A DNA stretch of 64,000 nt from Candidatus Latescibacterota bacterium. GTDB lineage: Bacteria > Latescibacterota > UBA2968. The DNA lies in contig OZ220741.1 of NCBI GenBank assembly GCA_965116885.1, positions 576,001 to 640,000 on the forward strand, given 5' to 3'. A model generated the notes under the pieces. It saw only the letters and a list, made by a program, of their open reading frames with translations, did no database searches and had not been told where the DNA came from. The position numbers and the translations under genes were made by a program. Shown piece by piece: positions 7,785-55,600 of this stretch (position 1 is the stretch's first letter; each line of letters opens with the position of its first letter).

Positions 7785-7868
7785 TACGCGAATATATACA
7801 TGTTTTTTTCAGGGAAAATGGGAGGAAAGAATAATTTGGCCTACCATACTACACCAAAAAGAAAGACT

Positions 7869-17077: not shown

Positions 17078-17189
17078 CGAATAGACGAATAGACGAACCC
17101 CGCCCCACCACCTAACGGGCGGGCACAGGGGCACCGCCCCTACATTGATGAACTGGCCTGACACCAGTTGTACCCCGTTCCGCTGATTC
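17078..17189 (+). repeat. composite REP-like repeat family A, copy 1
   Basis: (GAATAGAC)n + GGGCGGGCACAGGGGCACCGCCCCTAC + ATTGATGAAC..CCAGTTGTACCCCG; also at 30301 and 55411. Confidence 0.85.
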
Positions 17190-17378
17190 TCAATATAGAG
17201 GCAAAAAACCGCAGATCAAACAATTTCCGAACCGACCTTTTTTAGCAAACGTATTGGATTTGCTCTCCTTGCTTTATTATTAGAACAATACTTGCCACAC
17301 CCATGTAAATACCTTATATTAAATTGCTCTAAAATTATAGCTCTAAACCCCTCTAAAATCACCCCAAGAGCCTTCCCA

Positions 17379-24242: not shown

Positions 24243-24343
24243 CATTAGCCTCCACCATCACCTCAACAGCCGCCAGATGCGCTGCAACGCGCACATCCAT
24301 CGGCTGTGCCGTCGGGCTTTCTGACGTCACCAAATGCCCGTAT
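24243..24343 (-). repeat. displaced copy of the 3' end of the M14 peptidase gene (direct repeat with 27694-27795)
   Basis: About 101 nt, 5 substitutions and 1 edge indel; encodes GHLVTSESPTAQPMDVRVAAHLAAVEVMVEAN. Confidence 0.95.
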
Positions 24344-24443: not shown

Positions 24444-24537
24444 TTTTATAGAGTCTGCTTATGCACGCCCTTCATCTATATAGGGCCACCGCAAGTTTTA
24501 AAAGATTTTTCGTCATAGTAGATATAGAAACACATAC

Positions 24538-26505
24538 ATGCTGAGATTTGCTGAAGAAATACTACTGCTCCTCCACGACGAAGACCGGGGCGATTTCGCA
24601 CCCGGTCTTGCACAGCACGCGTTGAATATCGCTCTTGCCGGGGCCGTATTGATGGATTTGGCCCTGGAAAACCGCATCGATACCGATCTCGAGCATCTCT
24701 TTTTGGCTGATGCCACGCCTCTTGAAGACGACCTGCTCGATCCCACCCTTGCCGACATCGCACGCGATACGGACACACGAGACACCAACTATTGGCTCGC
24801 ACAAACGACCAAACGGGGCGACGAAATCCGCGATAAAGCACTTACGCGTTTGGTCAACCGGGGCATATTGGAAGCTGAGTCCGAAGATATCTTTCTCCTC
24901 TCTCGCCTGGTGTCGCGCTCCCGCCGCTATCCAACCATTGATGGAAAAACATTAGAAGAAGTCCGGTTGCGCATTATGCGCGTACTGTTCACCGATGAAA
25001 TTCCGGACCCACGCGACATCGTCATTATCTGTCTGGCGGATGCCTGCGGCGTTTTCAAGAATATTTTATCCCAGTCAGAACTATCGGAGGTACAAGAACG
25101 GATCGAACTGATTCGCAAAATGGACCTGATCGGCCAATCGGTTACCAAAGCGATCCGCGAGCATGAGCCTCCTACCCCTGTCCCTACTCCACGCAAAGAG
25201 ATACCTCAGGCACCGGGGTTGCCGCTTATTGGCAACACCATCGGCATGACGCGCGATTTGGGCTCGCTTCTCGTCAAACAATACCGAAACTTAGGTCCGA
25301 TTTTTCGCATCAAGGCATTCAATCGCCGTTTCGTCGTCCTCGTAGGTCCCGAGGCGAATACCTTCGTAAAGCGAGGGGGTAAGTACCTGCGCACGCTTGA
25401 AAACTGGGTGGATTACAACAAAGCTGGGGGCGTCGGACGTAGCATAATCAGCATGGATGGTCCCGACCATATTCGCCTGCGCAAAGAACTGGCGGATGTG
25501 TACACCCACCGCCTCATTGAAGGTCGTGTGGGAGACGCTGTCCACGTTCTTCAACAAGATATCGCCGGATGGCCCCAGGACAAGCCGCTGCCGGGCTTAT
25601 ACACCTGGCAGCGCATCGTCTTAGATCAGATCGGTGTACTGGCTCTCAGCATGCCTGTACACGACTACTTAGACGACATTATGATTTATTTTCAAAGCAA
25701 GATGAAAACCTATGTCATGCGGCAGCAACCCAGGCTGATGTTATATCGACCACGCGTCCGGCGTGCCTTCAAGCGAGTGGAAGAACTGGCTCAGCGCATT
25801 CTGGCAGATCACGAACCAGAAAAACGCCGCAACAAGCCACCGGATGCCATTGACCATTTGCTGGAACTGCACCGCAGGGATCCGCAATTTCTTCCCGAGA
25901 CCGATTTAGACATGTTGGGACCTCTCTCGGCCGGTCTCGATACCGTGGCAAATATCTGTGCCTTCATGTTCTACGAATTATTGAAGCGACCGGATCTGCG
26001 CGAGCAGGTAATTGCTGAAGCAGACGCCCTCTTTGATCAGGGTATGCCTACCGTGAACGATCTGCGTCAACTCGACGTCCTGCACCGCACGACAATGGAA
26101 ATAATACGCCTCTATCCCCTTGCGCCAGTAATGTCATTGCGCACAGTAGCCAACTCATTTGAATTTGAGGGCTATAAGGTCCCCGCTGGCGAGACCCTTC
26201 TGATTGGATTCACAATACCGCACCGGATGCCGGAATATTTCCCCAATCCGGAGCGCTTCGATATCGACCGCTACACCGCAGAACGCGCTGAGCACCGCCA
26301 GCACGGGGTCTATGTCCCCTTCGGCTTAGGAGCGCATCGGTGCCCAGGCAACAGGCTCGCCGAGGTGCTCATTGCGCTCAACATGGCGACCGTCCTCCGC
26401 GAAGCCGAATTGGTTCTCCATCCGCCCGATTGCGAATTGAAGACCAAACGAAGCTATGCCCTCCTACCCAACTACAAGTTCCGCCTGGTGCGTCGGCACC
26501 GATAG
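24538..26505 (+). CDS. GPP34/GOLPH3-like domain fused to cytochrome P450
   Basis: N-terminal FAEEILLLLHDE..G...LAGAVLMDLALENRI (GPP34-like); P450 motifs PGLPLIGN, AGLDT, EIIR, PERF, FGLGAHRCPG. Confidence 0.88.
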   Translation: MLRFAEEILLLLHDEDRGDFAPGLAQHALNIALAGAVLMDLALENRIDTDLEHLFLADATPLEDDLLDPTLADIARDTDTRDTNYWLAQTTKRGDEIRDKALTRLVNRGILEAESEDIFLLSRLVSRSRRYPTIDGKTLEEVRLRIMRVLFTDEIPDPRDIVIICLADACGVFKNILSQSELSEVQERIELIRKMDLIGQSVTKAIREHEPPTPVPTPRKEIPQAPGLPLIGNTIGMTRDLGSLLVKQYRNLGPIFRIKAFNRRFVVLVGPEANTFVKRGGKYLRTLENWVDYNKAGGVGRSIISMDGPDHIRLRKELADVYTHRLIEGRVGDAVHVLQQDIAGWPQDKPLPGLYTWQRIVLDQIGVLALSMPVHDYLDDIMIYFQSKMKTYVMRQQPRLMLYRPRVRRAFKRVEELAQRILADHEPEKRRNKPPDAIDHLLELHRRDPQFLPETDLDMLGPLSAGLDTVANICAFMFYELLKRPDLREQVIAEADALFDQGMPTVNDLRQLDVLHRTTMEIIRLYPLAPVMSLRTVANSFEFEGYKVPAGETLLIGFTIPHRMPEYFPNPERFDIDRYTAERAEHRQHGVYVPFGLGAHRCPGNRLAEVLIALNMATVLREAELVLHPPDCELKTKRSYALLPNYKFRLVRRHR

Positions 26506-26522
26506 CGAAATGGAGTGTCAAA

Positions 26523-27641
26523 ATGCCCACTAAGAAGCCACGCGCTCACCCAAATACGACCGCACCGTTGCGCGTTTGGGCGAAGCTACTCTGGGGCCAG
26601 GACGGGGTGAGGGTTGCGCCCCAGCACCGGGGACGAGTAAGGCGAATTCTCCTTGGCTCGGCCCTGATGGTACCGCTACGCTTGATCGAAAAGATGCGCT
26701 ACGGGCGCGCCGTAGCTCGGACGAAAATTGCGCATCCACCGATCTTTATCATCGGCCATGCCCGCTCGGGCACGACGCACTTGCACTATCTCCTGACGCG
26801 CGATCCGCAGTTCGCAATCGTCTCGTTGTTCCAATCCATCGCCCCGACATTCTTTCTGATCGGCCGTGGTTGGATCAAGCGTTTCATGGCCAAACAGCTC
26901 AAGCCAAAACGTCCGCAGGATGATGTCGAACTGGCGATGGACCTGCCGAATGAGGAGGAATTCGCGATTGCCAATTCCTCTGAGCTATCCAACGTTCACT
27001 TCCTTACATTCCCATCCAGGACGACGGAATACTTTGAAAAATATATCTTCATGAGGGGGCTGACTGAGCGGCAACAGGCGCGCTGGGATGCCGTCATCAC
27101 GGACATCATTAAAAAAGCCACCCTTGCGGGCGGTGGAAAACAGTTGGTACTCAAAAGCCCCTCCAACACCGGCCGAATTCCCCACCTCCTGCGCCTTTTC
27201 CCCAATGCCAGGTTCATTCATATCGCAAGAAATCCAGGCGATGTCTATTACTCGACAAACCATACATTAAGAAAGATGTTTGAGTTGTTCCTGCTGGAGG
27301 AGCATCCGGGCGATTTTTCGGATTTCGTCATCACCGAGTACAAGGCTCTAATGGAACAATACCTGAAAGACAGAGCTTTGATCCCAGAAGGCAATCTGGC
27401 GGAAGTGAAGTACGAGGACCTCGTAGCTGATCCACTGGGCGAAATGGAACGCATCTACGCGGCACTCGGATTGTCTGGTTGGGAAAGCGGAGGAAAGCAG
27501 GCTGTGGTCGAATACCTGAACACGCTTTCGGACTACCAAAAAAATACATTTGAACCGGACCCCGCCGCTATGGAGCGCGTCTCACGGGCCTGGCGATTTG
27601 CTTTCGAAGAATGGAATTATGAACTACCGGTGAAGCCATAG
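26523..27641 (+). CDS. PAPS-dependent sulfotransferase (Stf3-like)
   Basis: RBS GGAG + ATG 26523; PPIFIIGHARSGTTHLH, RPQD, PNEEE, LKSP, FPNARFIHIARNP, YEDLVADP. Confidence 0.88.
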   Translation: MPTKKPRAHPNTTAPLRVWAKLLWGQDGVRVAPQHRGRVRRILLGSALMVPLRLIEKMRYGRAVARTKIAHPPIFIIGHARSGTTHLHYLLTRDPQFAIVSLFQSIAPTFFLIGRGWIKRFMAKQLKPKRPQDDVELAMDLPNEEEFAIANSSELSNVHFLTFPSRTTEYFEKYIFMRGLTERQQARWDAVITDIIKKATLAGGGKQLVLKSPSNTGRIPHLLRLFPNARFIHIARNPGDVYYSTNHTLRKMFELFLLEEHPGDFSDFVITEYKALMEQYLKDRALIPEGNLAEVKYEDLVADPLGEMERIYAALGLSGWESGGKQAVVEYLNTLSDYQKNTFEPDPAAMERVSRAWRFAFEEWNYELPVKP

Positions 27642-27679
27642 ACTGGCCCAACCTATGTGCCAGTTTTAGATGAATTACT

Positions 27680-28420
27680 CTAAAAATCCCTCGCATTAGC
27701 CTCCACCATCACCTCAACAGCTACCAGATGCGCTGCAACGCGCACATCCATCGGTTGTGCAGTCGGGCTTTCTGACGTCACCAGATGACCCGTATGCCCT
27801 CTCTGATACAAAGCAATCGGTATGCCCTCCCCGTACTTCCGCCTCGACACCTCCATATTGGGATGAATCACCCCATTGACCGCAACCTCGCCCTCAATCT
27901 CGGCCTCTTTGTTAATCGGACACACCTGTGCCACCCGCTTCACCATCTCCCGTCCCAGGGATTCTCTGTCCCCAAACATCTCGTACAGATAAAACCCCGG
28001 ACTCTCCCAATCCTCGTGCAAATCGATCACACCCGCAAAAACCCGTCCTTCCACAAACCCCTTCAAAATCTCAATCTCGGGCACATCATCGCGCAAAAAC
28101 GCCCAATTCACATCCACCTCCTGTGCATTGAGCCGCGCATTGTGAACATAGCTCCACGGGCACAAACACGGAACAACCTCAAAACGCACCCGATCAGCCC
28201 AGCGTTCCCATCCCCCCTCCAAAAAAGCCAGCGCAGCCTCCACGCCAGCCGGTTCATCGCCGTGCGTCCCCCCATTGATATACACAACAGGTGTGTCTCC
28301 CTTGCCAGCAGACACGCGCAAAACCGGCAAACCTTCAACCTCCCCCAACTCGTACACATCAACACCAGACACAGCTTCCACGCGCTTAACAACAGCATCG
28401 TAATCCCGTTGACCCATCAC
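27680..28420 (-). CDS. M14 family metallocarboxypeptidase / succinylglutamate desuccinylase-like
   Basis: GTHGDEPAG (HxxE), IDLHED, TSESP. Confidence 0.85.
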   Translation of the reverse strand: MMGQRDYDAVVKRVEAVSGVDVYELGEVEGLPVLRVSAGKGDTPVVYINGGTHGDEPAGVEAALAFLEGGWERWADRVRFEVVPCLCPWSYVHNARLNAQEVDVNWAFLRDDVPEIEILKGFVEGRVFAGVIDLHEDWESPGFYLYEMFGDRESLGREMVKRVAQVCPINKEAEIEGEVAVNGVIHPNMEVSRRKYGEGIPIALYQRGHTGHLVTSESPTAQPMDVRVAAHLVAVEVMVEANARDF

Positions 28421-30300: not shown

Positions 30301-30407
30301 CGAATAGACGAATAGACGAATCGAACTCCGCCCCACACCCACGGGCGGGCACAGGGGCACCGCCCCTACATTGATGAACCGGCATGAACCAGTTATACAC
30401 CGCTCCG
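30301..30407 (+). repeat. composite REP-like repeat family A, copy 2
   Basis: (GAATAGAC)n...GGGCGGGCACAGGGGCACCGCCCCTACATTGATGAAC. Confidence 0.85.
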
Positions 30408-31501: not shown

Positions 31502-31599
31502 TGGCGGGAATGTGTGGGAATCGAACCCACCAAGCGTGGGGTTAGCACGCAACAACGGGTTTGAAGCCCGCGGGGGACACCAGTTCCCCATCCACTCCC
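31502..31599 (-). tRNA. selC: tRNA-Sec (anticodon UCA)
   Basis: GGGAGTGG...GCGGG-CTTCAAA-CCCGT, long variable arm, GTGGG-TTCGATT-CCCAC, 3' GCCA; 98 nt, immediately downstream of selD. Confidence 0.95.
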
Positions 31600-31601
31600 A
31601 A

Positions 31602-32645
31602 TCACGCTCGTACCTCAATCTCACCGGGATATTCTGCAACCACCTCGCCAATATCTCGAGCCATCACACCGCGATCGTCCAACGACTCAAGAAAAGCATC
31701 AGCCACATCGGGCGCAAGTGCAATCAACAGACCGCCAGAAGTCTGCGGATCAAAAAACAAACGCCTCAAAGCCTCATCAACATCATCGGCAAATCGCACC
31801 GCATGCCCGCGCGCCGCCCGATTGCGCCGCAAACCCCCGCCCTCGCGCCCCTCTGCAATCTGCAAAGCCAGATCAAAACGCGGCACATCAGAAGCACGTA
31901 TGCGAATCCCAACGCCACTCGCCTGCGCCATCTCCAACCCATGCCCCAGCAACCCAAACCCGGTAATATCCGTACATCCACCCGCATTATATGCAACCAT
32001 CTCCTCGGCTGCGATGCGATTCAACTGCACCATAGAATCCACCGCAATCTGCAACGCATCTTCATCGATCTCACCATTTTGATAGGCATCCGACATCAAA
32101 CCCGTACCCAGCGGCTTGGTCAGAATCAGACGATCTCCCACCCGGGCGCCCGCATTGGTCTTCACATCGTCTGGATGCACAACCCCCGTCACAGACAACC
32201 CGAACTTGGGTTCCACATCCTCCACAGAATGCCCGCCGACCAAAACCGCGCCAGACTCCGCCACCTTCTCCTGCGCCCCTCTTAAAACCTCGGCAATCAC
32301 CTCTGGCTCGACGTCATCACTCGGAAACCCGCAAATATTCAGCGCAGTAATCGGGCGCCCCCCCATCGCATACACATCGCTCAGTGAATTGGCTGCGGCA
32401 ATCTGCCCATACGCATGCGGATCATCGACAATAGGCGTAAAAAAATCCACCGTCTGAATAAGCGCCACATCCTCAGAAATCCGAAACACCCCGGCATCAT
32501 CAGCCGTATTCATCCCCACCATCAAATCGGGATGCGCCACAGGCGTCAACTTTTTTAGAATCACATCCAGCACCGCTGGATCGAGTTTCGATGCTCAACC
32601 ACCGCAACTGACGAGCTGAGTCAATCTTCTACCGCGATACTTCAT
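31602..32645 (-). CDS. selD: selenide, water dikinase; selenoprotein (UGA codon 17)
   Basis: MKYRGRRLTQLVSCGG-U-ASKL in frame with ORF 31602-32573; DDAGV, TVDFFTPIVDDP, ANSLSDVYAMGG, TDITGFGLLGH, DPQTSGGLL. Confidence 0.95.
32565..32581 (-). promoter_or_regulatory. SECIS-like hairpin of selD
   Basis: ATCCAGC-GGT-GCTGGAT, 13 nt after the UGA at 32597-32595. Confidence 0.7.
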
Positions 32646-34591: not shown

Positions 34592-34712
34592 AGCGAATCA
34601 ACGAATCAACGACGGAGTTCGCACTGACTTTGGGAGATAGGGTGGGGTTCGTCTATTCGTCTATTCGTCTATGAATTGGCCTGAGAGGCGGCCAATTGTA
34701 CCCCGCTCCGTC
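34592..34712. repeat. rearranged family A modules
   Basis: (GAATCAAC)2, inverted (TTCGTCTA)3, GAATTGGCCTGAGAGGCGGCCAATTGTACCCCG also seen at about 55536. Confidence 0.75.
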
Positions 34713-39879: not shown

Positions 39880-41832
39880 ATGTCAAAAAAAATCATCGCC
39901 TATGGCATGGACGGATTCATCACCCCTATGATGAAATACTTTGCCGACGAAGGCGTTATCCCAACTTTTAAACGCCTGCTCGACGAGGGCGCAGTCAACG
40001 AAACCTTCCCCTCCTTCCCCGTCTGGACACCCACCAACTGGGCAACCCTCTCCACTGGCGCGCACACCGGCACGCACAGCGTCACGCGCTGGCGCGTCGA
40101 AGTAGGTCCCGGCGAACGCATCAACTCGTTTCACGGTCGCGCCAACAATGCCCAGCGCCTGTGGAACGCCCTCGAACGCGAAGGACTCAAAGGCGTTGCC
40201 CTGCACTATCCGGCAGCGCATCCATCAGGCGTTGAAAAAGGGTACGTAATCGACGGATTTGGTCACCCCGGACACGCCAGCACCGACTATGAAATCGCCG
40301 CAGCACAGGCTTATACCACCGCCGAACACGTCGAAGAAATCGTGCAAATGGACCACGACGGCACAGCCGTGCGCCGGAGACAGCGAAGCATCGAACCCAT
40401 CCCCGCACTATCGCCCGCGGATGGCTGGACCAATCTTCCACAAAGCGCTGCCCCGCCCCTCGCTTCCACCATTGCAATCCACGCGCGCCTCGGCGGCGAC
40501 ATCAACCGCTTTCACCTGCTCGTCTTCGCCAGTGCCAACAGCGGATACGACACCCTGCGCGTCTGCCGCTCCCAAAATGGCAGCGACCACATCGCCGAAA
40601 CCAGCACGGGTGCGTGGAGCAACTGGGCCATCGAACCCTTCTGCATCGAAAGCCGCGAACAACGCGCCTCTGTGCGCTTCAAACTCCTCGAACTCGAACC
40701 CGATGGCTCCCATCTCAAGCTCTACCGCTCTCAAATCACATATAGCGACGGCTTCACATATCCAGATGACCTCGCCGACGAACTCATCCAGCGATTTGGC
40801 CCCTATCAAGAACACGCCTCAATGACCCCCTACACCTCCGGCATGACCGACTTTGACACCGCCCTTGAAGAATGCGAATACCAGGGTCTCTGGTTTGCCG
40901 ATGTCGCCAATTACATGCTCCACGAAAAAGATGCCAATTTCTTCATCTGCCACTGGCACCTCTATGACTACATCAACCACATCCACCTCGACGGCGTCGA
41001 TCCGGTTTGTCCGGCTTACGATCCCGACAAAGCCGACGACATCATGCACCTCTTCCGCAAAGCCTACATTGTGGGCGACAAAATCCTGAAACGCATGTGG
41101 GACGCCGCCGATGACACCACATACGTCGGCGTGCTTTCCGATCACGGCGCATCGCCGGATGTACGCATCGCCAATATCCGAAAATTCCTGCACGACGAAG
41201 GATTCACCGTCCTGAAAGAAGACGCCAGCGACGGCGTCGAGCGCGATGAAGTCCTGGAAAGAGAAATCGACTTTGAAAAAACCCGCGCCTACCTCAAAGA
41301 CGACAAGGGATTCGACATCTGGATCAACGCCGAACCCGGTCCCAAATTCGACGAAATCGAACGCGATGTCCTCCTCGCCCTTCGCACCTGGGTCGATGAA
41401 GACATCGGTCGCAATGTCGTCGCCATCGCCCTGCCCAGACGCGACGCGTACATACTCGGACAATGGGGCGATCAGTGCGGCGACGTCATCTTCGCATGGG
41501 ATCACGGATTCGTCAGCGGGTACTACGGCCAGTGGAAAGGCATTGTGGGCGGCGGCTGCGTAGGCGCACCCGAAGTCTTCGGCGCACACCACGGCGGCTT
41601 CATCCCCACGCGCAGCGATATCTCATCGAGCTTTGGTTCTTTCTTCCTCTCAGGTCCCGGCATCAAAAAAGGCTACGAACGCCCCACCGACAAACTCGGC
41701 TACATCCACGCCGCAGACGTCGTCCCCACGCTTTGTCACATCTTCGGCATTGCGCCACCGGACCAGAGCCAGGGCGCGGTTGCCTATGACATTCTCGAAG
41801 GTCATGAGATGGTGCGGGAACGCCCTGAATAA
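39880..41832 (+). CDS. alkaline phosphatase superfamily (type I phosphodiesterase/nucleotide pyrophosphatase) protein
   Basis: GMDG, TPTNWATLSTG, DYINH, SDHG, DVVPTL. Confidence 0.85.
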   Translation: MSKKIIAYGMDGFITPMMKYFADEGVIPTFKRLLDEGAVNETFPSFPVWTPTNWATLSTGAHTGTHSVTRWRVEVGPGERINSFHGRANNAQRLWNALEREGLKGVALHYPAAHPSGVEKGYVIDGFGHPGHASTDYEIAAAQAYTTAEHVEEIVQMDHDGTAVRRRQRSIEPIPALSPADGWTNLPQSAAPPLASTIAIHARLGGDINRFHLLVFASANSGYDTLRVCRSQNGSDHIAETSTGAWSNWAIEPFCIESREQRASVRFKLLELEPDGSHLKLYRSQITYSDGFTYPDDLADELIQRFGPYQEHASMTPYTSGMTDFDTALEECEYQGLWFADVANYMLHEKDANFFICHWHLYDYINHIHLDGVDPVCPAYDPDKADDIMHLFRKAYIVGDKILKRMWDAADDTTYVGVLSDHGASPDVRIANIRKFLHDEGFTVLKEDASDGVERDEVLEREIDFEKTRAYLKDDKGFDIWINAEPGPKFDEIERDVLLALRTWVDEDIGRNVVAIALPRRDAYILGQWGDQCGDVIFAWDHGFVSGYYGQWKGIVGGGCVGAPEVFGAHHGGFIPTRSDISSSFGSFFLSGPGIKKGYERPTDKLGYIHAADVVPTLCHIFGIAPPDQSQGAVAYDILEGHEMVRERPE

Positions 41833-41839
41833 AAAAAAT

Positions 41840-42583
41840 ATGACACGCCAATTTGCTCTTATTCTTATCACTTGCCTGACGATTACATCCTGTACCGCTA
41901 CGAAGGGTGCAACCGAGGCTGAGTTCAGTTTTACTTTTCAAAGTGATGCCGAAGGCTGGATGGCCGGATTTGCCGATCTTCCCGCCAACTTCGAGCCATC
42001 AATCTACGAACTCGACTCCGGTTATCGCCCTCTTCCATCAGGTCTCGAAGGCAATGGTCTCTACATCCAGGGACATAATCGCAGCGATGACCTCTTCATG
42101 TTTTTCAAGAGGCGGATTGACGGGCTTAAGGCAGATGCGACCTACGCGGTATTCGCGTCCCTCGACCTGGCGACCAATGTTCCGACCAACACCTTTGGCA
42201 TCGGTGGCTCTCCCGGTGAGAGCGTGTACGTAAAAGCGGGAGCCTCTACTGTTGAACCCGTAGCAGAGGGGGCAAACCTCAGACTGAACATCGACAAGGG
42301 AAATCAGTCCAACGGCGGCGCGTCAATGGTCGTGATAGGAAATGTCGCTCATCCCGAAGTTATAGGCAGAGAGTTCCGGCTCAAGTCTCTTGACAATGCC
42401 GACAATCCAGTGAATGTCACGACTAACAGCAAGGGCGAACTCTGGCTGATCGTCGGTACCGACTCTGGCTTTGAGGGACTGAGCACATTCTACTACGCCC
42501 GCATTGCCTACACACTCAAAATAGTGGAATCCCCTAACTCGGAGGCTTCACTCCTCGGGCCGAGTAACCGGAGTGTGGATTAG
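41840..42583 (+). CDS. hypothetical lipoprotein
   Basis: ATG 41840, lipobox ITSC; GW.AGFADLP, GHNRSDDLFMF, GTDSGFEG. Confidence 0.7.
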   Translation: MTRQFALILITCLTITSCTATKGATEAEFSFTFQSDAEGWMAGFADLPANFEPSIYELDSGYRPLPSGLEGNGLYIQGHNRSDDLFMFFKRRIDGLKADATYAVFASLDLATNVPTNTFGIGGSPGESVYVKAGASTVEPVAEGANLRLNIDKGNQSNGGASMVVIGNVAHPEVIGREFRLKSLDNADNPVNVTTNSKGELWLIVGTDSGFEGLSTFYYARIAYTLKIVESPNSEASLLGPSNRSVD

Positions 42584-42671
42584 GTTTGCGCGGCATTCAA
42601 TACCAAAATTCACAACCCTTTATGAACGAGGTTCAGGATGAAAACAGGGTGTGCTTTCAGAAAATGCCCAG

Positions 42672-42703
42672 ATCGCTCCCTACGTGGGAGCGTGGATTGA
42701 AAC
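42672..42703 (+). CRISPR. solitary type I-C-like CRISPR repeat (no array, no cas genes in the window)
   Basis: ATCGCTCCCTACGTGGGAGCGTGGATTGAAAC: 32 nt, stem CGCTCCC/GGGAGCG, 3' ATTGAAAC handle. Confidence 0.8.
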
Positions 42704-42714
42704 TCTTTTTGGAA

Positions 42715-42795
42715 ATCGCCCCCGACCAGAGTTAGGGTGTGATTGCCTATGACATTCTCGAAGGGCATGAGATGGTGCGCGAACTACAGGTATAG
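42715..42795 (+). repeat. displaced, decayed copy of the 3' end of the 39880-41832 gene
   Basis: 42724-42784 vs 41761-41821: 54/61 identical; reads IAPDQS*GVIAYDILEGHEMVRELQV*. Confidence 0.92.
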
Positions 42796-42828
42796 ATCAC
42801 AGTTTTTGATAGCTAACAGCGATAGATG

Positions 42829-42857
42829 TTGACACAAGTTCGGCAGAATGCGATACT
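42829..42857 (+). promoter_or_regulatory. sigma70 promoter of hicBA
   Basis: TTGACA-N17-GATACT with extended TG. Confidence 0.65.
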
Positions 42858-42899
42858 TTCCACGCATTGCACCAAAAGCAAACTGGAAAGGAGTACAAG

Positions 42900-43145
42900 A
42901 TGGTAGAAGGATATCGATTACATCTTCAGATCAGGCGAGTAGAAAACGGTCAACACCTCGCTACCTCTGATGACTTTCCCGGTCTCGTGGCACAAGGAAG
43001 AACTGTGTCTGAAGCGATTGAAATTGCTCAAGACGTTGCAAGAAAACTAATTGAATCCTATCGGGAACATGGCGACATTCTGCCAAAGGGTTTGCAGGCT
43101 ATAAATACAGAGAGCGTTGAATTGGACGTTCTCGTAGGTGTGTGA
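42900..43145 (+). CDS. hicB: HicB-like antitoxin
   Basis: RBS AAGGAG; FPGLVAQGRTVSEAIEIAQD. Confidence 0.82.
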   Translation: MVEGYRLHLQIRRVENGQHLATSDDFPGLVAQGRTVSEAIEIAQDVARKLIESYREHGDILPKGLQAINTESVELDVLVGV

Positions 43146-43369
43146 TGGGTCGGCTGGCAGGTTTTACATATCGACAAGTGACCCGCAAATTGCGGCGGTT
43201 GGGATTCGAATTTGATCGACAAGCACGGGGAAGTCATGAGATCTGGTGGAACCCTGATACGCGACATCGAACCACTATTCCCAATCATCCAAGAGATTTA
43301 CCAGAAGGAACTTTATCCGCAGTTCTTAAGCAAGCGGGTATAACCGCGGAAGAATTCCTTGGAGCGTAG
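43142..43369 (+). CDS. hicA: HicA toxin
   Basis: LGFEFDRQARGSHEIW, TIPNH, GTLSAVLKQAG. Confidence 0.9.
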   Translation: MMGRLAGFTYRQVTRKLRRLGFEFDRQARGSHEIWWNPDTRHRTTIPNHPRDLPEGTLSAVLKQAGITAEEFLGA

Positions 43370-43411
43370 GATGTGCGTATATCTCGCTATCTCCGTTAAA
43401 TGAGGCCCATC

Positions 43412-43672
43412 ATGAAAACAGAATGTGCTTTCTGTGGCCATAAAGAACTCCGGTCTTGCCAAACGCAATATATTTACCGGTACGATGGCAAATTCCTTAT
43501 TGTGGATGATGTGCCATGTCTCCAGTGTGCATATTGCGGCGAGCAATATTTTGAAGGTACGGTATTGCGGGATATTGAAAAACGATTCAATGAACTTCAT
43601 GTCCAGGGACAGAAAGCGAGCAAGGAAGTTCAGATTCCCGTAGAACACTTCACGGACCTTTGCCAAGCCTAA
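43412..43672 (+). CDS. YgiT-type zinc finger protein (MqsA N-terminal-like)
   Basis: CAFCG...VPCLQCAYCGEQYF. Confidence 0.82.
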   Translation: MKTECAFCGHKELRSCQTQYIYRYDGKFLIVDDVPCLQCAYCGEQYFEGTVLRDIEKRFNELHVQGQKASKEVQIPVEHFTDLCQA

Positions 43673-43692
43673 ATGACAGTAAAAAAGAGAAC

Positions 43693-43917
43693 ATGACAAA
43701 ACCATTTGCCATCTGCATCAATAATGAGGGATACGAGGCTTCTCTCGAAGTAGGTAAGGTTTATTGCATCATACCCGATGAAGAAGCCTCCGCCCATGGC
43801 TATATTCGCATCATTGATGAAAGCGGTGAAGATTATGCTTTTGGCGACCACCGCTTTCATCGCGTTGACCTGCCCGATGCTGTTGGTGAGATGTTGGTAT
43901 CTGCACAGCAGGTATAG
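43693..43917 (+). CDS. small conserved hypothetical protein of a type seen in TA-like loci
   Basis: FAICINNEGYEASLE..KVY..RIIDESGEDY. Confidence 0.7.
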   Translation: MTKPFAICINNEGYEASLEVGKVYCIIPDEEASAHGYIRIIDESGEDYAFGDHRFHRVDLPDAVGEMLVSAQQV

Positions 43918-44001
43918 CTCATAAACACAATGGTACAAACAACGGGCGTGCGGGATCGAATCGCACGCCCTTGTGTATTGAAAGAAGACTATCTTTTTAT
44001 C

Positions 44002-44208
44002 TCATGACACCCTCTTGGGCTTTTTCTTTTTATGGACGCAATCCTGGAGATACAGATTGATCAAACTCTGGTATGGAATACCTGTTTCGTCCGCCAAATC
44101 CTTAAAATACGCAATCACATCCGTCCCCAAACGAAGCGTGACCTGCTTTGTAAGATGTTTTGCATAGGGATTCTTGACGGATTTTGAGAAATCGTATTCT
44201 TTTCTCAT
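44002..44208 (-). CDS. brnA: BrnA-family antitoxin (orphan)
   Basis: RBS GAGG; MRKEYDFSKSVKNPY, VTLRL, YFK, GIPYQSLINLYL. Confidence 0.82.
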   Translation of the reverse strand: MRKEYDFSKSVKNPYAKHLTKQVTLRLGTDVIAYFKDLADETGIPYQSLINLYLQDCVHKKKKPKRVS

Positions 44209-44292
44209 TACATATACCTCACACAGCCTCATACCAAAAATCCTGGCAATAAGCGAAAAACTCGCCTCCTTCGACGAGAGAATGGAAACTAT

Positions 44293-44337
44293 TTGACATT
44301 TTATCTTAAAGTGCACACATTATGTGTACACTTTAAG
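44293..44337 (+). promoter_or_regulatory. vapBC promoter and palindromic operator
   Basis: TTGACA at 44293; CTTAAAGTGCACACA-TTA-TGTGTACACTTTAAG (one mismatch) at 44305-44337. Confidence 0.7.
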
Positions 44338-44345
44338 GAGGAATT

Positions 44346-44591
44346 ATGAAAGCATCTATTCTCGACTTAAGACGACGCATGAAAGATGTCTTACTCGCAC
44401 TTGACCGCAACGAAACGGTCACCATTTTTTATCGCGGCAAAGAAAAAGCCATCCTCACTCCCAGCCAACAGCGAACAAACAAATCTGTAAAAGACCACGA
44501 AGCTTTTGGGATGTGGCGAGACAGAAAAGATATGACAGATGTCGATGCTTACGTCCGCAATTTGAGAAAAGGCCGCTTGAATGATTTTTGA
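44346..44591 (+). CDS. Phd/YefM-like antitoxin
   Basis: MKASILDLRR..VTIFYRGKEKAIL..FGMWRDR; overlaps the PIN gene. Confidence 0.8.
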   Translation: MKASILDLRRRMKDVLLALDRNETVTIFYRGKEKAILTPSQQRTNKSVKDHEAFGMWRDRKDMTDVDAYVRNLRKGRLNDF

Positions 44592-44958
44592 TACCGATGT
44601 TATAATATGGGTTTTCAGAGGTCATGAAGAGGCTGCAAAACTCGTTGAAAGTATCGATGAGCGTCAGATATCAATTGTTACGTATATGGAATTTATCCAG
44701 GGAGCGAGAAATCGGCAGGAATTAAAAAAGATCAAAGATTTTCTCACTGACCACGCCTTTCAGACCCTACCTCTCACTGAAAATATCGGACATAGAGCAT
44801 CTGTATATATGGAAGAATATACCCTTAAGACAGCACTGTATATGGCAGATGCTTTAATTGCAGCAACAGCTATTGAACACCATTTAACCCTTTGTACAGC
44901 CAACAGAAAACACTACCACCAAATCAACGAACTCAATCTAAAAATCTTTCGTCCTTGA
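44581..44958 (+). CDS. vapC: VapC/PIN-domain toxin
   Basis: IFDTDVII, YME, ADALIAATA, TANRKHY. Confidence 0.9.
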   Translation: MIFDTDVIIWVFRGHEEAAKLVESIDERQISIVTYMEFIQGARNRQELKKIKDFLTDHAFQTLPLTENIGHRASVYMEEYTLKTALYMADALIAATAIEHHLTLCTANRKHYHQINELNLKIFRP

Positions 44959-44982
44959 CCTCTGACGACCATCTTTAAATTG

Positions 44983-45744
44983 CTACCGACAACAGCGGAA
45001 CCCGATATCCTTCCCCTGCCATCTGGGACTGAGACGTCCGCGCTCTTGCACCCGCACGGCTGGTGCGCCATTTACCCAACTGCCGCCGCGCATCACGCGC
45101 AAGCTCCCGCTCTCTGGTCCCTGGGGATTTTCCCGCGGACTATTGCGATAATAATCCACGCGGTGCCAATCCGCCACCCACTCCCACACATTGCCCGACA
45201 AATCCGCCACCTCAAAAGGACTCATACCATTGGGAAAACTGCCCACAGTCGAGGGCTTGCCCACATGCCCATTAAAATTCAACCGCGTCGGATCGGGATC
45301 CTCATTGCCCCAGGGATAAATACGCCCATCGCCACCCGCAGCCTTTTCCCACTCCGCCTCGGAACACAACCGCTTGCCTGCCCACGCGCAAAAATCCTGT
45401 GCATCAAACCAGGTCACACCAACCACCGGTTGCCGCGCGGCATTAAACCCCACAGAATCGGCACAAGCCGAAGGATCGCGCCCTGTAGTCGCAACAAATA
45501 ATCTGTAATCCGCGTTCACCACCTCAAAGCGATCAATCCAGAAAGCATCCAAAAACACCACATGCTCGGGACCTTCGTCCCGCCCATATTCATTGGTCCC
45601 CATCACAAATTCGCCCGCTGGAATTTCGACCATCTCCTCAATCAACTCGCCCTCTGATTCTGGCTGAACGGGATAATCATCACCGCAACCAGCCAGCAAC
45701 CCCATCCCAATGAGCACGCACAAAAATTTCAAAATATCGCCCAT
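44983..45744 (-). CDS. FGE-sulfatase (SUMF1/EgtB/PvdO) domain lipoprotein
   Basis: Lipobox LAGC, IPAGEFVMG, RLCSEAEWEKAA, GNVWEW, RGGSW, IGFRC. Confidence 0.88.
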   Translation of the reverse strand: MGDILKFLCVLIGMGLLAGCGDDYPVQPESEGELIEEMVEIPAGEFVMGTNEYGRDEGPEHVVFLDAFWIDRFEVVNADYRLFVATTGRDPSACADSVGFNAARQPVVGVTWFDAQDFCAWAGKRLCSEAEWEKAAGGDGRIYPWGNEDPDPTRLNFNGHVGKPSTVGSFPNGMSPFEVADLSGNVWEWVADWHRVDYYRNSPRENPQGPESGSLRVMRGGSWVNGAPAVRVQERGRLSPRWQGKDIGFRCCR

Positions 45745-53640: not shown

Positions 53641-55425
53641 ATGCCCGAAACACAGCCGCGCCCCGAACACCCCCGTCCGCAATTTCAGCGCACCACCTGG
53701 CTAAACCTCAACGGCACCTATAACTTCGCCATAGACTCTGGAAAATCCGGCGAAGCCAAAGGCTGGCCCCAAAATCCCGCTGAATTAGACCGCACCATCA
53801 CCGTCCCCTTCTGCCCGGAATCCAGCCTCTCGGGCATTCAACACACGGACTTCATGCCCTCGGTCTGGTATCACAGAACCCTCGACATCCCCGACGAATG
53901 GACGGACAAGCGCGTACTCCTGCACTTCGGCGCGGTCGATTACCACTGCAAAGCCTGGGTCAACGGTCAGCTCATCGGACAGCATTACGGCGGCAGTTCA
54001 TCCTTCACTTATGACATCACAGACGCACTCACGTCTGGCGCGAACCACCTCGTCGTCTGCGCCAATGACGACACGCGCTCAGGCGACCAGCCCTCGGGCA
54101 AACAATGCCCCGACCTCTATTCCCGCGGCTGCCACTACACGCGCGTCACGGGAATCTGGCAAACCGTCTGGCTCGAAGCCGTACCCGAATCGCGCATCGA
54201 AACGGTGCGCATCGTACCCGACCTCGACAGCAGCCGCTTTGTACTCACCCCCACATTCAAAAACGCGCATCGCGGACACACCTTCCGCGCCGTCCTCCTC
54301 AACGGCAAAGAAGAAGTCGCAGTCTCCACCATGCCCGCCACGAGCGGCGCTGCCATGTCCTTGCGCATCAAAAACCCGCAACCCTGGTCGCCAGACAACC
54401 CCCACCTCTACGACCTCCGCTTTGAACTCTGCGATGGCGACACCACCATCGACACCGTCAACAGCTATGCCGGCCTGCGAAAATTTCACATCGAAGGCCA
54501 CAAATTCTACCTCAACAACACCCCCATCTTCCTGCGCCTTGTACTGGACCAGGGATTCTATCCCGACGGAATATGGACCGCTCCATCCGACGACATGCTC
54601 AAAGGCGACATCGAAAAATCGCTCGCCGTCGGCTTCAACGGCGCGCGCCTGCACCAGAAAGTATTCGAAGAACGCTTTCACTACTGGGCCGACAAACTCG
54701 GATACCTCACCTGGGGCGAATACTGCGACTGGGGCATGAACTTCGGCTCACCCCAATCAATACACAACCAGCAACGCGAATGGCGAGAAATCGTCCAGCG
54801 CGACCTCAACCACCCCTCTATCCTCGCCTGGACCCCATACAACGAAACCCGGGGCGGCGCGACCAACCACTTTGAAGCGCATCGCCGTGCCGTACAGGAA
54901 ACCTACGACCTCACCAGAGCACTCGACCCCTCTCGCCCCTGCCACGACACCAGCGGCTACGTACACGTCTGCACGGACATCTACACCGTACACGACTACG
55001 AACAGGACCCCGTCAAATTCAAATCAACTTATGCACCCGTATCCCCCGAAGACTGGGAAAACACCCCCATACGCTTCCCCGAATTGAATGTGCCCTATCA
55101 GGGCCAACCCTACGTCGTCGATGAATACGGCGGCACATGGTGGGATCCCAATGCCGTCGAAACAGAACAGGACGCAGACCGCAAAAGCAGCTGGGGCTAT
55201 GGCAAGCGCCCCACCGACATTGAAGAAGTGTATCACCGCATCGAAAAACTCACAGCCATACTCCTCAACCACCCCAACATCGCGGGGTATTGCTACACCC
55301 AACTCACCGACATCGAACAAGAACAAAACGGCATCTACACCTACGACCGCCGGGAAAAATTCGACGCAAAACGCCTGAAAAAATATTTCGGCGCCCCCGC
55401 GGCGATTGAACGAATAGACGAATAG
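53641..55425 (+). CDS. glycoside hydrolase family 2 (beta-galactosidase/glucuronidase-like)
   Basis: HPRPQF, VPFCPES, LHFGAVD, GIWQTVWLE, LDQG, NET, DEYGG, YTQLTDIEQEQNG. Confidence 0.92.
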   Translation: MPETQPRPEHPRPQFQRTTWLNLNGTYNFAIDSGKSGEAKGWPQNPAELDRTITVPFCPESSLSGIQHTDFMPSVWYHRTLDIPDEWTDKRVLLHFGAVDYHCKAWVNGQLIGQHYGGSSSFTYDITDALTSGANHLVVCANDDTRSGDQPSGKQCPDLYSRGCHYTRVTGIWQTVWLEAVPESRIETVRIVPDLDSSRFVLTPTFKNAHRGHTFRAVLLNGKEEVAVSTMPATSGAAMSLRIKNPQPWSPDNPHLYDLRFELCDGDTTIDTVNSYAGLRKFHIEGHKFYLNNTPIFLRLVLDQGFYPDGIWTAPSDDMLKGDIEKSLAVGFNGARLHQKVFEERFHYWADKLGYLTWGEYCDWGMNFGSPQSIHNQQREWREIVQRDLNHPSILAWTPYNETRGGATNHFEAHRRAVQETYDLTRALDPSRPCHDTSGYVHVCTDIYTVHDYEQDPVKFKSTYAPVSPEDWENTPIRFPELNVPYQGQPYVVDEYGGTWWDPNAVETEQDADRKSSWGYGKRPTDIEEVYHRIEKLTAILLNHPNIAGYCYTQLTDIEQEQNGIYTYDRREKFDAKRLKKYFGAPAAIERIDE

Positions 55426-55600
55426 ACGAATAGACGAACCCCGCCCCACCACCCAACGGGCGGGCACAGGGGCACCGCCCCTACATTGATGAATTGTCCC
55501 GAACCAGTTGTACCCCGTTCCGTTGATTCGCTGATGAACTGGCCTGAGAGGCGGCCAGTTGTACCCCGGTCCGTTGATTCGCCGATTCGCTGATTCGCGC
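55411..55600 (+). repeat. composite REP-like repeat family A, copy 3 (longest; supplies the GH2 stop codon)
   Basis: (GAATAGAC)3 + REP + two GATGAA..CCAGTTGTACCCCG units + (GATTCGCY)n. Confidence 0.85.

Follow-up and report, generated by a model that had tools for sequence, protein, structure and literature searches.

The 3′ end of a phosphodiesterase-family gene in a Candidatus Latescibacterota bacterium (genome G000) is found a second time shortly downstream, behind a lipoprotein-like gene and a CRISPR-like repeat, which raises the question of whether the enclosed DNA is a captured cassette or the remainder of an older event. The locus lies in a 64,000-nucleotide stretch of contig OZ220741.1 (hereafter the window, to which coordinates refer unless a genome is named). 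A repeat search of the window returned positions 41758–41821 and 42721–42784 as a direct repeat of 64 nt with 56 identical positions (88%, 8 mismatches), and if a 3-nt indel is allowed, the homology of the proximal and distal copies reaches upstream to ∼41741. Genome-wide self-BLAST of G000 recovered the same pair (E = 1.7e-11) and no third copy. Both searches bear out what had been described from the letters alone (hereafter the sequence-only reading), namely a 61-nt match (41761–41821 and 42724–42784, 54/61 identical) in which CAG at 41770–41772 has become TAG at 42733–42735 and which encloses the lipoprotein gene and the CRISPR-like repeat.

The arrangement was also present in independent assemblies of public runs. 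A single contig of run X1 covers 41300–43700 with 51 letters different, a 380-nt contig of run X3 covers 42421–42800 with 1 difference, and runs X15 and X16 each contributed a 189-nt contig (42591–42779) with 0 differences. As these assemblies have an identical structure, the repeat pair is not an assembly artefact. Neither a joint omitting the 963-nt segment nor a circle junction was seen among the contigs of the four runs, from which rare variants are dropped. The features of the locus, together with those of a partner locus discussed below, are collected in Table 1.

Table 1. Features of the phosphodiesterase locus (39880–45744) and of the partner locus in the window.
Feature	Positions	Strand	Basis or remark
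Phosphodiesterase/nucleotide pyrophosphatase-family gene, 650 aa, target gene	39880–41832	+	Pfam PF01663, E = 6.9e-19
Proximal copy, the duplicated part of the working gene's 3′ end	41741–41823	+	gapless repeat 41758–41821
New last codons CCT GAA TAA (..RPE-stop), left junction of the old insertion	41824–41832	+	homology with distal copy and G019 breaks here
Lipoprotein-like gene, 247 aa, Cys-containing signal peptide	41840–42583	+	no Pfam match; Atlas: unnamed clusters only
Relic: 3′ tail of DUF4258 toxin-like gene and first 20 nt of MqsA/YgiT-like partner	42602–42658	+	
12 nt before the CRISPR repeat, probably the end of the last spacer	42659–42670	+	inferred from position only
Solitary orphan type I-C CRISPR repeat	42671–42703	+	93.5% to array repeats of G017/G020
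Distal copy, displaced original phosphodiesterase 3′ end, pseudo-fragment	42704–42795	+	in-frame TAG 42733–42735; old stop 42793–42795, ..ELQV-stop
HicB-like/HicA toxin–antitoxin pair, ancestral neighbour of the gene	42796–43369	+	Pfam HicA E = 5e-21; HicB-like weak
Remaining variable region: MqsA/YgiT-like gene, small ORF, BrnA/CopG-like antitoxin (-), VapB-like ORF and PIN toxin	43400–44958	.	Pfam
FGE-sulfatase-domain lipoprotein gene, conserved right border, convergent with target gene	44983–45744	-	PF03781, E = 1e-54
Partner locus: distal copy, displaced original 3′ end, contiguous with ancestral downstream DNA	24243–24339	-	
Partner locus: cargo, GPP34–cytochrome P450 fusion and sulfotransferase	24532–27653	+	Pfam
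Partner locus: resident gene, 246 aa, 3′ end (27694–27790) duplicated	27680–28420	-	no Pfam family

Orthologues of the phosphodiesterase gene occur in 19 of 20 same-genus genomes with 87–98% amino acid identity, and at the opposite border homologous DNA was found from 44985 on in the stretches of 16 of the 20 relatives. Between these borders, DNA homologous to the lipoprotein gene is present at the same position in 8 of 20 same-genus stretches, and the modules of the variable region (43400–44958) are present, absent or shuffled across the 20 relatives. A promoter-like site is predicted for the HicBA pair at 42829–42857.

The identity of the solitary repeat to the arrays of G017 and G020 holds over 31 nt (42673–42703), and its positions 42675–42703 represent the sole copy in the 5.56-Mb G000 genome at up to 6 substitutions. 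A genome-wide search of G000 found no second repeat with a spacer, an array being defined by at least two repeats; the Rfam model CRISPR-DR9 gave 19.7 bits compared to a gathering score of 45 (E = 0.058), that is, no match at the gathering threshold. No cognate cas genes were detected in G000 by tblastn with six G017 Cas proteins (E ≤ 1e-3), and a search of this genome for Cas8c returned nothing. In G017 and G020, the same site is occupied by a complete type I-C cas operon with an array of ∼26–34 repeats behind it, in the order cas3-cas5d-cas8c(csd1)-cas7-cas4-cas1-cas2-array; Cas3, Cas5d, Csd1, Cas7, Cas1 and Cas2 were confirmed by Pfam at the sister locus. The terminal repeat of both arrays adjoins the very pseudo-fragment known from G000, recognizable by the shared AGTTAG (CAG to TAG), a common 3-nt deletion and a start point corresponding to 42704, and gene homology begins 0–3 nt past the terminal repeat in all three species.

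Further forms of the locus were found in other relatives. G002 harbours a decayed version (cas3, cas5, a truncated cas8c and 6 degenerate repeats) and G003 stray repeats; both display an alternative array end, array-DUF4258-MqsA, which lacks the displaced fragment and in which the DUF4258/MqsA-like pair is intact and contiguous (DUF4258 Pfam E = 9e-22 for the G002 gene). Stumps of both array-end forms are present in G000, where 42625–42658 duplicates 43399–43432 (79%), and the MqsA-like start thus occurs twice. In G015, the displaced tail is cut to about its last 21 nt ahead of HicBA. A second copy of the displaced fragment was not detected in the first 8.4 kb 3′ of the gene in the 20 relatives (word size 7), the G017 and G020 fragments lying further out. 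These comparisons indicate that the lone repeat of G000 is, as judged by its sequence and position, the last remnant of a type I-C CRISPR-Cas locus still kept by sister species, and it is presumably inert. Since 42671–42703 is a relic of a whole CRISPR-Cas locus, the 963-nt segment, which the sequence-only reading had taken for a captured cassette with lipoprotein and CRISPR-like cargo, is a deletion remnant of the locus kept in G017 and G020 and not a captured unit. The two array-end forms and the stumps of both in G000 require several further deletions or recombinations, which can only be sketched.

The empty counterpart of the site is seen in G019, where the gene ends in ..ERQV-stop, followed by ATCACAG and HicB; this region is colinear with window positions 42719–43121, and HicBA lies directly 3′ of the gene. 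The empty site, with RQV-type gene ends, was observed in G019 and in four outgroup genomes. Among 21 genomes, the gene end ..ERPE-stop was found in 15, the other ends being ERQV (G019), KRQV (G001), KREV (G016), ERQG (G018), RREA (G029), each before the stop, and a longer tail (G010); RQV-like ends occur in the 5 same-genus genomes outside the RPE clade, and in a tree of the flank (1.6 kb, 17 rows) the RQV group corresponds to one change (branch support 97/91). The proximal copy differs from G019 at ∼6 of 80 nt (counted by eye), compared to 93.7% identity over 332 nt for the rest of the gene; being no more diverged than the remainder, it bears nothing that would mark it as donor DNA.

Taken together, these comparisons establish gene(..RQV-stop)-HicBA as the apparent ancestral site, retained by G019, and the sister loci with the same junction together with this empty site point to one ancient insertion, basal to a clade that comprises at least 15 species. 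A single insertion thus appears to have displaced the gene tail, with the cas genes and the array being lost later in G000. The gene-end repeat records an old insertion and its decay and does not speak for a novel capture system still at work: G000, G017 and G020 have the junction and the TAG in common, and the RPE end is shared by 15 genomes, so the event is old and no sign of ongoing capture. We therefore favor a model, which we consider likely, in which the locus is the scar of an old 3′-end displacement insertion that carried type I-C CRISPR-Cas and has since been mostly deleted in G000. On the comparisons above, the phosphodiesterase gene received a block of DNA within its final codons in the ancestor of the clade (at least 15 species), which gave it the new tail RPE-stop and pushed a copy of the original last ∼92 nt, with the stop and HicBA, downstream. 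Decay has left one repeat, the displaced tail, the lipoprotein gene and the DUF4258/MqsA-like stump in G000, and the flanking direct repeats may serve as later homology arms for loss, gene conversion or re-transfer.

The architecture is not restricted to this gene. At the partner locus of the window, the repeat search identified a direct repeat of 97 nt with 94% identity (24243–24339 and 27694–27790), and self-BLAST located an 88% copy of its P450-sulfotransferase cargo at G000 4410148–4413300. Among the stretches of 13 relatives, the site is empty in 7 and holds the cargo in 4; in the empty-site relatives the gene end runs directly into 24343 and below. The incoming end of the gene is ARDF-stop, as compared to the longer native tail. 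The distal fragment of G009 measures at least 194 nt. The distal tail of G000 matches the empty-site allele of G013 and G014, and that of G009 a different empty-site allele. A third locus, at 4.93 Mb of G000, contains an inserted 9-kb island with KAP NTPase, TatD, DUF4062 and SLFN/AlbA_2 genes; the site is empty in G008, G011 and G012, and the displaced fragments measure 41 nt in G004, 92 nt in G006 and 83 + 45 nt in G007. Each locus of G000 has one displaced fragment, two being found only in G007 at the third locus. At all three loci, the gene end of the empty sites is immediately followed by the DNA that lies 3′ of the distal copy. At a fourth candidate (gene at G000 3650855–3651598, with FAD-oxidoreductase cargo), no clean empty site was found in the relatives' flanks (±1.5 kb).

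Of the three target genes, one belongs to the phosphodiesterase family and the other two have no toxin family; the cargo consists of CRISPR-Cas, P450-sulfotransferase or defence-like genes. Genome-wide, a 3′-end duplicate downstream in the same orientation was obtained for 11 of 3715 probed genes of G000 and for 2 in the mirror control. Recurrence at unrelated targets with unrelated cargo, proposed earlier from the two loci of the window, is thus upheld by these counts and by the third locus, and a comparison of the same sites across related genomes uncovered filled and empty alleles at three loci.

With regard to the mechanism, the mismatches of the 64-nt pair are unevenly distributed, 6 falling in the first 22 nt and 2 in the last 42 nt (Fisher p = 0.016), and the longest identical run within this decayed repeat is 22 nt. 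This skew and the two alleles in the G000 and G009 tails indicate that homologous recombination apparently acts on the repeats. The insertion itself may have proceeded by one-sided homologous recombination between two alleles of the variable site, either through a circularised piece (gene 3′ end plus cargo) that integrated in the Campbell manner via the common gene end or through homology-facilitated illegitimate recombination (HFIR) of a linear piece. Homology-driven circle integration, one of three mechanisms offered in the sequence-only reading, fits the anatomy and is plausible on sequence grounds; nothing points to the other two, RNA-templated capture and a trans-acting recombinase. A duplication copied from the recipient's own sequence at insertion, whether as an unusually long target duplication or through template switching during replication, would fit equally well. 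The preference for 3′ ends may be seen because only insertions that leave the gene whole survive.

HFIR is said to proceed in transformable bacteria by one-sided integration with a homologous anchor and an illegitimate joint, reportedly according to de Vries and Wackernagel and Prudhomme and colleagues in 2002 and Meier and Wackernagel in 2003, and its usual outcome is reportedly an insertion accompanied by deletion of recipient DNA. Unlike this usual outcome, the anchor is duplicated here, and the joint would have to fall upstream of the crossover. Separately, the right junction coincides exactly with a CRISPR repeat end, which would be rare for a random illegitimate join and which the displacement model leaves unexplained.

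A common type of island reconstitutes the 3′ end of its target and leaves direct repeats behind, and integrase-borne islands and prophages enter gene 3′ ends and restore the gene. Similar to these, direct 3′-end repeats flank the cargo at our locus and the proximal copy keeps the gene intact, so an integrative island that brought a replacement tail and was inserted by a tyrosine or serine recombinase, with the repeats as attL/attR and the integrase lost or acting in trans, would account for the RPE tail exactly at the junction and for the defence genes in the cargo. We nevertheless consider such an island very unlikely. Integrase or transposase Pfam families were absent from the 52 window ORFs scanned, which agrees with the earlier designation 'integrase-free', and integrase or recombinase families from 10 ORFs of the G017 locus and 27 ORFs at eight other candidate loci. 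Moreover, the repeats are long and unequal, ranging from 41–92 nt at the third locus and ∼92 nt at the phosphodiesterase gene to at least 194 nt in G009, a short identical core was not found, and the right end is a CRISPR repeat and not an att-like core. The search for a shared junction motif, which the sequence-only reading had put forward as a check, yielded none across 10 loci. Tandem duplication of a segment that begins with the gene's last ∼92 nt and extends downstream, with the cargo of the copies later replaced or lost, is also unlikely for this pair. The genome-wide class is mixed, and some of its 11 members are of this type, at least 2 being remnants of tandem or whole-gene duplication: gene 2779 retains parts of both ends (5′ and 3′) of a complete copy, gene 58 belongs to a pair of tandem paralogues, and gene 453 has two similar outer-membrane genes behind it; the MqsA-like start is likewise doubled in G000. 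The origin from whole-gene tandem duplications, named in the sequence-only reading as what would speak against its proposal, thus applies to cases of this type but probably not to the phosphodiesterase pair, in which the distal copy matches the empty arrangement of G019 with which it is colinear. Furthermore, the two copies end differently (RPE-stop and LQV-stop) and are followed by unrelated DNA, all three loci have empty sites in relatives, and extra replacement steps would be needed. That the gene ends require a single change on the tree also argues against tandem duplication.

The start of gene homology 0–3 nt from the terminal repeat end in three species could also suggest that the CRISPR machinery made the junction and the locus inserted itself, by Cas1-Cas2 activity at repeat borders or by recombination through a self-matching spacer. 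We regard this as highly improbable: with a length of at least 92 nt and a continuation into the native neighbouring DNA, the stretch of homology is no spacer, and a spacer crossover would truncate the resident gene and duplicate at most 37 nt, neither of which is seen. The two other loci have the same architecture without CRISPR, a type I-C island in G030 has no flanking repeat (best E = 0.2), and a 59-nt flanking repeat in G060 lies in fragments that resemble transposases and not at a gene end. The idea that type I-C islands are generally flanked by gene tails was dropped, as it is unsupported by G030 and G060. Homing of the CAST type or by a self-targeting spacer was likewise rejected; the match is at least 92 nt long and, like the G019 sequence, continues past the old stop as far as the HicB promoter region, and neither tnsB, tnsC or tniQ in the window nor cas genes in G000 were found.

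The displacement reading has precedents in two known systems. In rhs genes, C-terminal displacement has been described, with excision and insertion via a circular intermediate proposed to occur by homologous recombination, the model that fits our locus (Jackson et al. 2009, PMC2935791). According to the excerpted text of that report, the likeness extends to an intact gene followed by a dissociated fragment of variable length with a conserved 3′ piece and the old end, and to a new end that arrives with its own downstream genes while the old end is shunted downstream and not deleted. Compared with the same excerpts (PMC2935791), our targets are ordinary enzyme genes and not polymorphic toxins, only the last 3–4 codons change and not a toxic tip, the cargo is CRISPR-Cas, a metabolic pair or a defence island and not immunity genes, and the window contains single fragments and no long strings. 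For the Vibrio cholerae T6SS, sequential displacement of effector–immunity modules behind a conserved upstream anchor has been reported, with HFIR as the proposed route (Kirchberger et al. 2017, PMC5361080). As far as the excerpts of that study describe it, modules are similarly inserted behind the anchor, with the old 3′ part and its partners shifted back and no integrase; unlike the orphan immunity genes there, which are thought to be useful, the displaced tail here is dead and contains a stop (PMC5361080). Overall, with the signature and the circle model in print for rhs (PMC2935791) and HFIR for T6SS (PMC5361080), at least in the portions considered, we rate the locus as a new example of a known displacement process; the 'undescribed mechanism' suspected earlier is not supported. 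Our literature search on integrase-free islands with partial duplication returned unrelated work only, and the search on lone-repeat remnants no paper on such a scar.

It is possible, though in our view doubtful, that the displaced tail acts as a portable homology arm, such that a unit of gene 3′ end plus cargo loops out between the two repeats and is taken up into the corresponding gene of a naive relative through one crossover. The P450-sulfotransferase unit in front of two native tail alleles (G000 and G009) would be consistent with this, and four fragment lengths in four genomes at the third locus would be the expected trace of repeated entries. If so, whole islands, such as complete CRISPR-Cas or multi-gene defence, would shuttle between species at fixed sites in a recombinase-free manner. 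Under the favored scar model, a puzzling 'cassette' becomes a readable history in which a working CRISPR-Cas locus entered the last codons of a housekeeping-type gene, was inherited by a clade and eroded unequally, and thereby a dated, site-anchored case of how uncultivated, sponge-associated bacteria gain and lose CRISPR-Cas. The displacement signature of toxin loci also marks ordinary genes at the edge of variable or defence regions that are integrase-free, and if such scars are common, they may provide a simple marker for hotspots and allow one-sided insertion to be distinguished from plain allele replacement.

Standalone CRISPR repeats in cas loci have been described to yield regulatory cr-like RNAs (Shmakov et al. 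2023, bioRxiv 10.1101/2023.03.03.530964). Within what the excerpted preprint covers, 42671–42703 resembles these as a single CRISPR repeat outside an array, and differs from them in standing in a genome without cas genes, array decay being sufficient to explain it (bioRxiv 10.1101/2023.03.03.530964). Two further candidates were rejected in the window: an integron array of toxin–antitoxin cassettes, as there are no attC-like inverted repeats at the module borders between 41800 and 45100 and no integrase family in the window, and a CRISPR at 8154–9443, where the 66-nt tandem array is the coding repeat of a leucine-rich-repeat protein.

The arrangement behind the phosphodiesterase-family gene is, in our judgement, likely to be the scar of a decayed CRISPR-Cas insertion and a fresh instance of an event type already described. 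In a genome-wide self-BLAST of the source genome (G000), 41758-41821 matched 42721-42784 over 64 nt (88% identity, E = 1.7e-11), and no third copy of this gene-end repeat was found. The codon CAG at 41770-41772 reads TAG at 42733-42735 in the distal copy, and the 54/61 identity over 61 nt noted in the sequence-only reading was reproduced. Allowing a 3-nt indel, homology extends back to about 41741/42704, and the distal copy carries its own stop at 42793-42795; it therefore corresponds to the last ~92 nt of the gene. Mismatches within the 64-nt pair are unevenly spread, with six in the first 22 nt versus two in the last 42 (Fisher p = 0.016). As had also been claimed, the copies enclose a lipoprotein gene and a CRISPR-like repeat, the latter occurring only once in the 5.56-Mb single-contig G000 at up to 6 substitutions. 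Four public runs, each from a different study, have contigs that contain the junction, one contig covering 41300-43700; among the 20 runs listed with part of the stretch, 13 bear a sponge metagenome label and 6 a coded organism.

Features at the phosphodiesterase locus, the partner duplication, the third locus and the selenocysteine tRNA gene (window coordinates unless marked G000)
Feature	Position	Strand	Remarks
Phosphodiesterase-family gene	39880-41832	+	PF01663
Lipoprotein-like ORF	41840-42583		no family; between copies
57-nt stump	42602-42658		between copies
246-aa gene (partner case)	27680-28420	-	3' end duplicated at 24243-24339
Partner cargo	24532-27653		GPP34-P450 fusion + sulfotransferase (Pfam)
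Gene at third locus	G000 4939049-4939894		followed by 9-kb island, then 45-nt tail copy adjoining SLFN gene
Selenocysteine tRNA gene	31506-31599	-	Rfam tRNA-Sec, 70 bits
AIR-synthase-family gene	31602-32573	-	directly adjoins tRNA-Sec gene

To place this arrangement, the region that follows the phosphodiesterase gene was examined in 20 relatives. All but G029 belong to the same genus, and G029 falls in a different family within the same order. The stretches covered 8.4 kb in 19 relatives and 2.7 kb in the remaining one. The interval up to the convergent FGE-sulfatase gene (44983-45744) is hypervariable among them: the lipoprotein gene, HicBA, an MqsA/YgiT-like gene, a small ORF, a BrnA/CopG-like gene and a VapBC-like pair are kept, missing or shuffled depending on the relative. 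Two relatives, G017 and G020, carry a full type I-C set in this interval (Cas3, Cas5d, Csd1/Cas8c, Cas7, Cas1 and Cas2 by Pfam, together with a Cas4-like ORF), and 3' of their cas genes lie 34 and 26 matches, respectively, to the 12-nt end of the window's repeat. Cas3, cas5, a truncated cas8c and six degenerate repeats were retained in G002, and stray CRISPR repeats in G003. Because the window's repeat is 93.5% identical over 31 nt to the G017/G020 array repeats, while the six Cas proteins had no tblastn match in G000 and Rfam gave only a sub-threshold match (CRISPR-DR9), the repeat is taken to be the orphaned remnant of a type I-C array.

Directly behind the degenerate terminal repeat of the array, both G017 and G020 carry a pseudo-copy of the 3' end of the phosphodiesterase gene; it is 74.6% identical to the window's gene across 71 nt in G017 and 75.5% identical across 94 nt in G020. 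These pseudo-copies share with window 42704-42795 an identical start point, the 3-nt deletion and AGTTAG, the CAG-to-TAG change; the junction between terminal repeat and displaced tail was therefore inherited from a common ancestor. In G015, about the last 21 nt of the displaced tail are left before HicBA. The fragment ends differ, being RPA*-like in G020 versus RQG*/LQV* in G017 and G000 (last residues before the stop, marked by an asterisk).

The relatives also indicate which copy is older. In G019, the gene end ERQV* is directly joined to ATCACAG and then HicB, and window 42719-43121 (ELQV*, ATCACAG, HicB) is colinear with this arrangement. An ERPE* gene end is found in 15 of the 21 genomes (G000 plus the 20 relatives), the others being G019, G001, G016, G018, G010 and G029 (ERQV*, KRQV*, KREV*, ERQG*, a longer tail and RREA*). 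The flank tree (1.6 kb, 17 rows; G002, G003 and G012 were left out for an incomplete flank and G008 for want of an orthologue) placed G019 as sister to a 12-row clade made up entirely of RPE* members (support 97/91), and one change is enough for the RQV group. Because of this colinearity, the distribution of gene ends and the tree, the distal copy is identified as the original gene end. The last three codons of the present tail of the working phosphodiesterase gene came with the insertion, which is placed at the base of the RPE* clade; the fragment has diverged 12-25% from the gene, in keeping with neutral decay over the time since.

Further traces lie between the copies in G000. The 57-nt stump joins the end (~23 nt) of a DUF4258 toxin-like gene to the beginning (20 nt) of the MqsA-like gene paired with it; this pair is intact in G002 and G003. 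The simplest reading of the order of events, which we infer, is a long ancestral arrangement of gene (RPE*), lipoprotein gene, DUF4258/MqsA, further genes, cas genes and array, followed by old tail, HicBA, MqsA and onward, from which deletions would have produced all present forms; one of them, in G000, would have removed the DNA between the MqsA start and a point inside the last spacer. The scheme does not fully place G002 and G003, which show a different array end (array, then DUF4258/MqsA) without the fragment. The start of the MqsA/YgiT-like gene region (~34 nt) also has a copy upstream (42625-42658 versus 43399-43432, 79%), a nested 5'-end counterpart of the 3'-end duplication and another breakpoint in the variable region. 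Several relatives without the lipoprotein gene (among stretches L013-L035) still show its opening ~18 nt (ATGACAC.ACAATTTGC), joined to the beginning of the small ORF that is the counterpart of window 43693-43917; that ORF begins much as the lipoprotein gene does. Gene loss in these relatives seems to have proceeded via recombination between the two short similar gene starts.

Comparing cargo across relatives, as had been proposed, was informative at two further loci. At the partner duplication (24243-24339/27694-27790), the site is empty in 7 of 13 relatives' stretches, with the gene end directly joined to 24343 and below; cargo is present in 4, and 2 are uninformative. Homology stops a few codons before the stop (ARDF* versus a longer native tail), and the distal fragment of G009 is longer, reaching at least 194 nt by blastn and aa 156-242 by protein search. 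In their distal tails, G000 and G009 each match a different empty-site allele, which needs either two entries of the P450-sulfotransferase unit or later recombination through the fragment. An 88% copy of the cargo lies at G000 4410148-4413300, where it largely replaces one copy of a duplicated gene. This second pair (4410148-4413626, outside the window) stands behind what remains of the 5' end of a 941-aa gene, a stump of 112 aa; within a duplicated block of three genes, that gene is intact at a distance of 13 kb. The cargo has thus landed in a different kind of site.

Recurrence was assessed with 150-nt probes from the start, middle and end of each ORF of at least 510 nt (n = 3715), searched against G000. 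These ORFs came from a crude set of 4342, built without a gene finder by greedily taking the longest ORFs down to 100 aa. Copies were kept if in the same orientation, within 10 kb, at least 40 nt long and at least 78% identical, outside same-strand ORFs and from probes with at most 4 genomic matches; three genes with several matching probes (whole-gene relics) were removed. Orphan copies of the 3' probe lay downstream of 11 genes and upstream of 2 (binomial p = 0.022); those of the 5' probe did not differ (upstream 7, downstream 6), and the middle probe gave one upstream and none downstream. The class of 11 is mixed, at least two (genes 58 and 2779) being relics of tandem or whole-gene copies, and genes 453 and 1953 probably so too. 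The third locus, another of the 11, has empty sites in G008, G011 and G012. Its island in G000 encodes KAP NTPase, TatD, DUF4062 and SLFN/AlbA_2, and fragments stand behind other cargo in G004 (41 nt), G006 (92 nt) and G007 (83+45 nt). The two G007 copies (G007:C218) lie about 1.8 kb apart, the only string of fragments seen, like rhs arrays. At one further locus of the class, flanks of +/-1.5 kb in the relatives yielded no clean empty site.

The comparisons show that cargo was inserted into the last codons of a resident gene and the tail duplicated, the older copy lying distal and joined to the ancestral neighbour. Erosion followed, and no recombinase was found in the ORFs scanned (integrase/transposase in 0/27 ORFs at eight loci, 0/10 at the G017 locus and 0/52 in the window). 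The shared junction motif that had been looked to as a check did not emerge from the junctions of 10 loci, where homology ends 11-21 nt before the gene end in 4 and passes through the stop in 6. Two alleles of a variable site would have undergone one-sided homologous recombination. Either a circle of gene tail and cargo would enter when a single crossover occurs within the tail, or a linear piece would anchor in the gene and be joined illegitimately upstream of the crossover; selection would retain only events leaving the gene whole. The uneven mismatches in the 64-nt pair, the differing fragment ends and the two distal alleles at the partner locus argue for recombination acting on the repeats. 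The tail duplication may instead have been made in place rather than brought as a donor-borne arm, since divergence from G019 is no higher in the proximal tail than elsewhere in the gene. The right junction lies exactly at the border of the CRISPR repeat, a position for which the insertion model offers no explanation. That islands shuttle between species using displaced tails as homology arms strikes us as doubtful.

The proposal of an undescribed cassette-capture mechanism thus holds as to a plausible recurrent, integrase-free and homology-driven route, but was wrong on cargo, age and novelty. The displacement signature and a circle model were described for rhs genes as 'C-terminal displacement' (PMC2935791), and homology-facilitated illegitimate recombination was modelled for T6SS effector-immunity arrays (PMC5361080). 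Compared with those loci, the targets here are ordinary enzyme genes, the changed end comprises just 3-4 codons, and the cargo is CRISPR-Cas, a metabolic pair or a defence island. A text search of the literature, which is not proof of absence, found no published description of a displaced gene tail bordering a CRISPR-Cas locus. Integron and CAST readings of the locus were rejected, and none of the testable defining features of an integrase island was present.

In G060 (L050, another family), a type I-C CRISPR-Cas locus on the reverse strand lies between 59-nt direct repeats (about 2675-2733 and 16986-17044, 83%), which lie in reading frames resembling fragments of a transposase. A dispersed intergenic repeat family, unrelated to the CRISPR scar, occurs at 17078-17161, 30304-30387 and 55419-55502, and also at 17164-17195, 34658-34711 and 55504-55586; its members (68-95% alike) combine an 8-nt tandem motif (ACGAATAG or complement), a GC-rich stretch and a conserved tail. 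A 600-aa leucine-rich-repeat protein of about 18 units of 22 residues (66-nt period) is encoded at 7800-9602 (+), adjoining sulfatase genes. Finally, the AIR-synthase-family gene may be selD-like, and the tRNA-Sec gene behind it suggests selenoprotein use in this organism.
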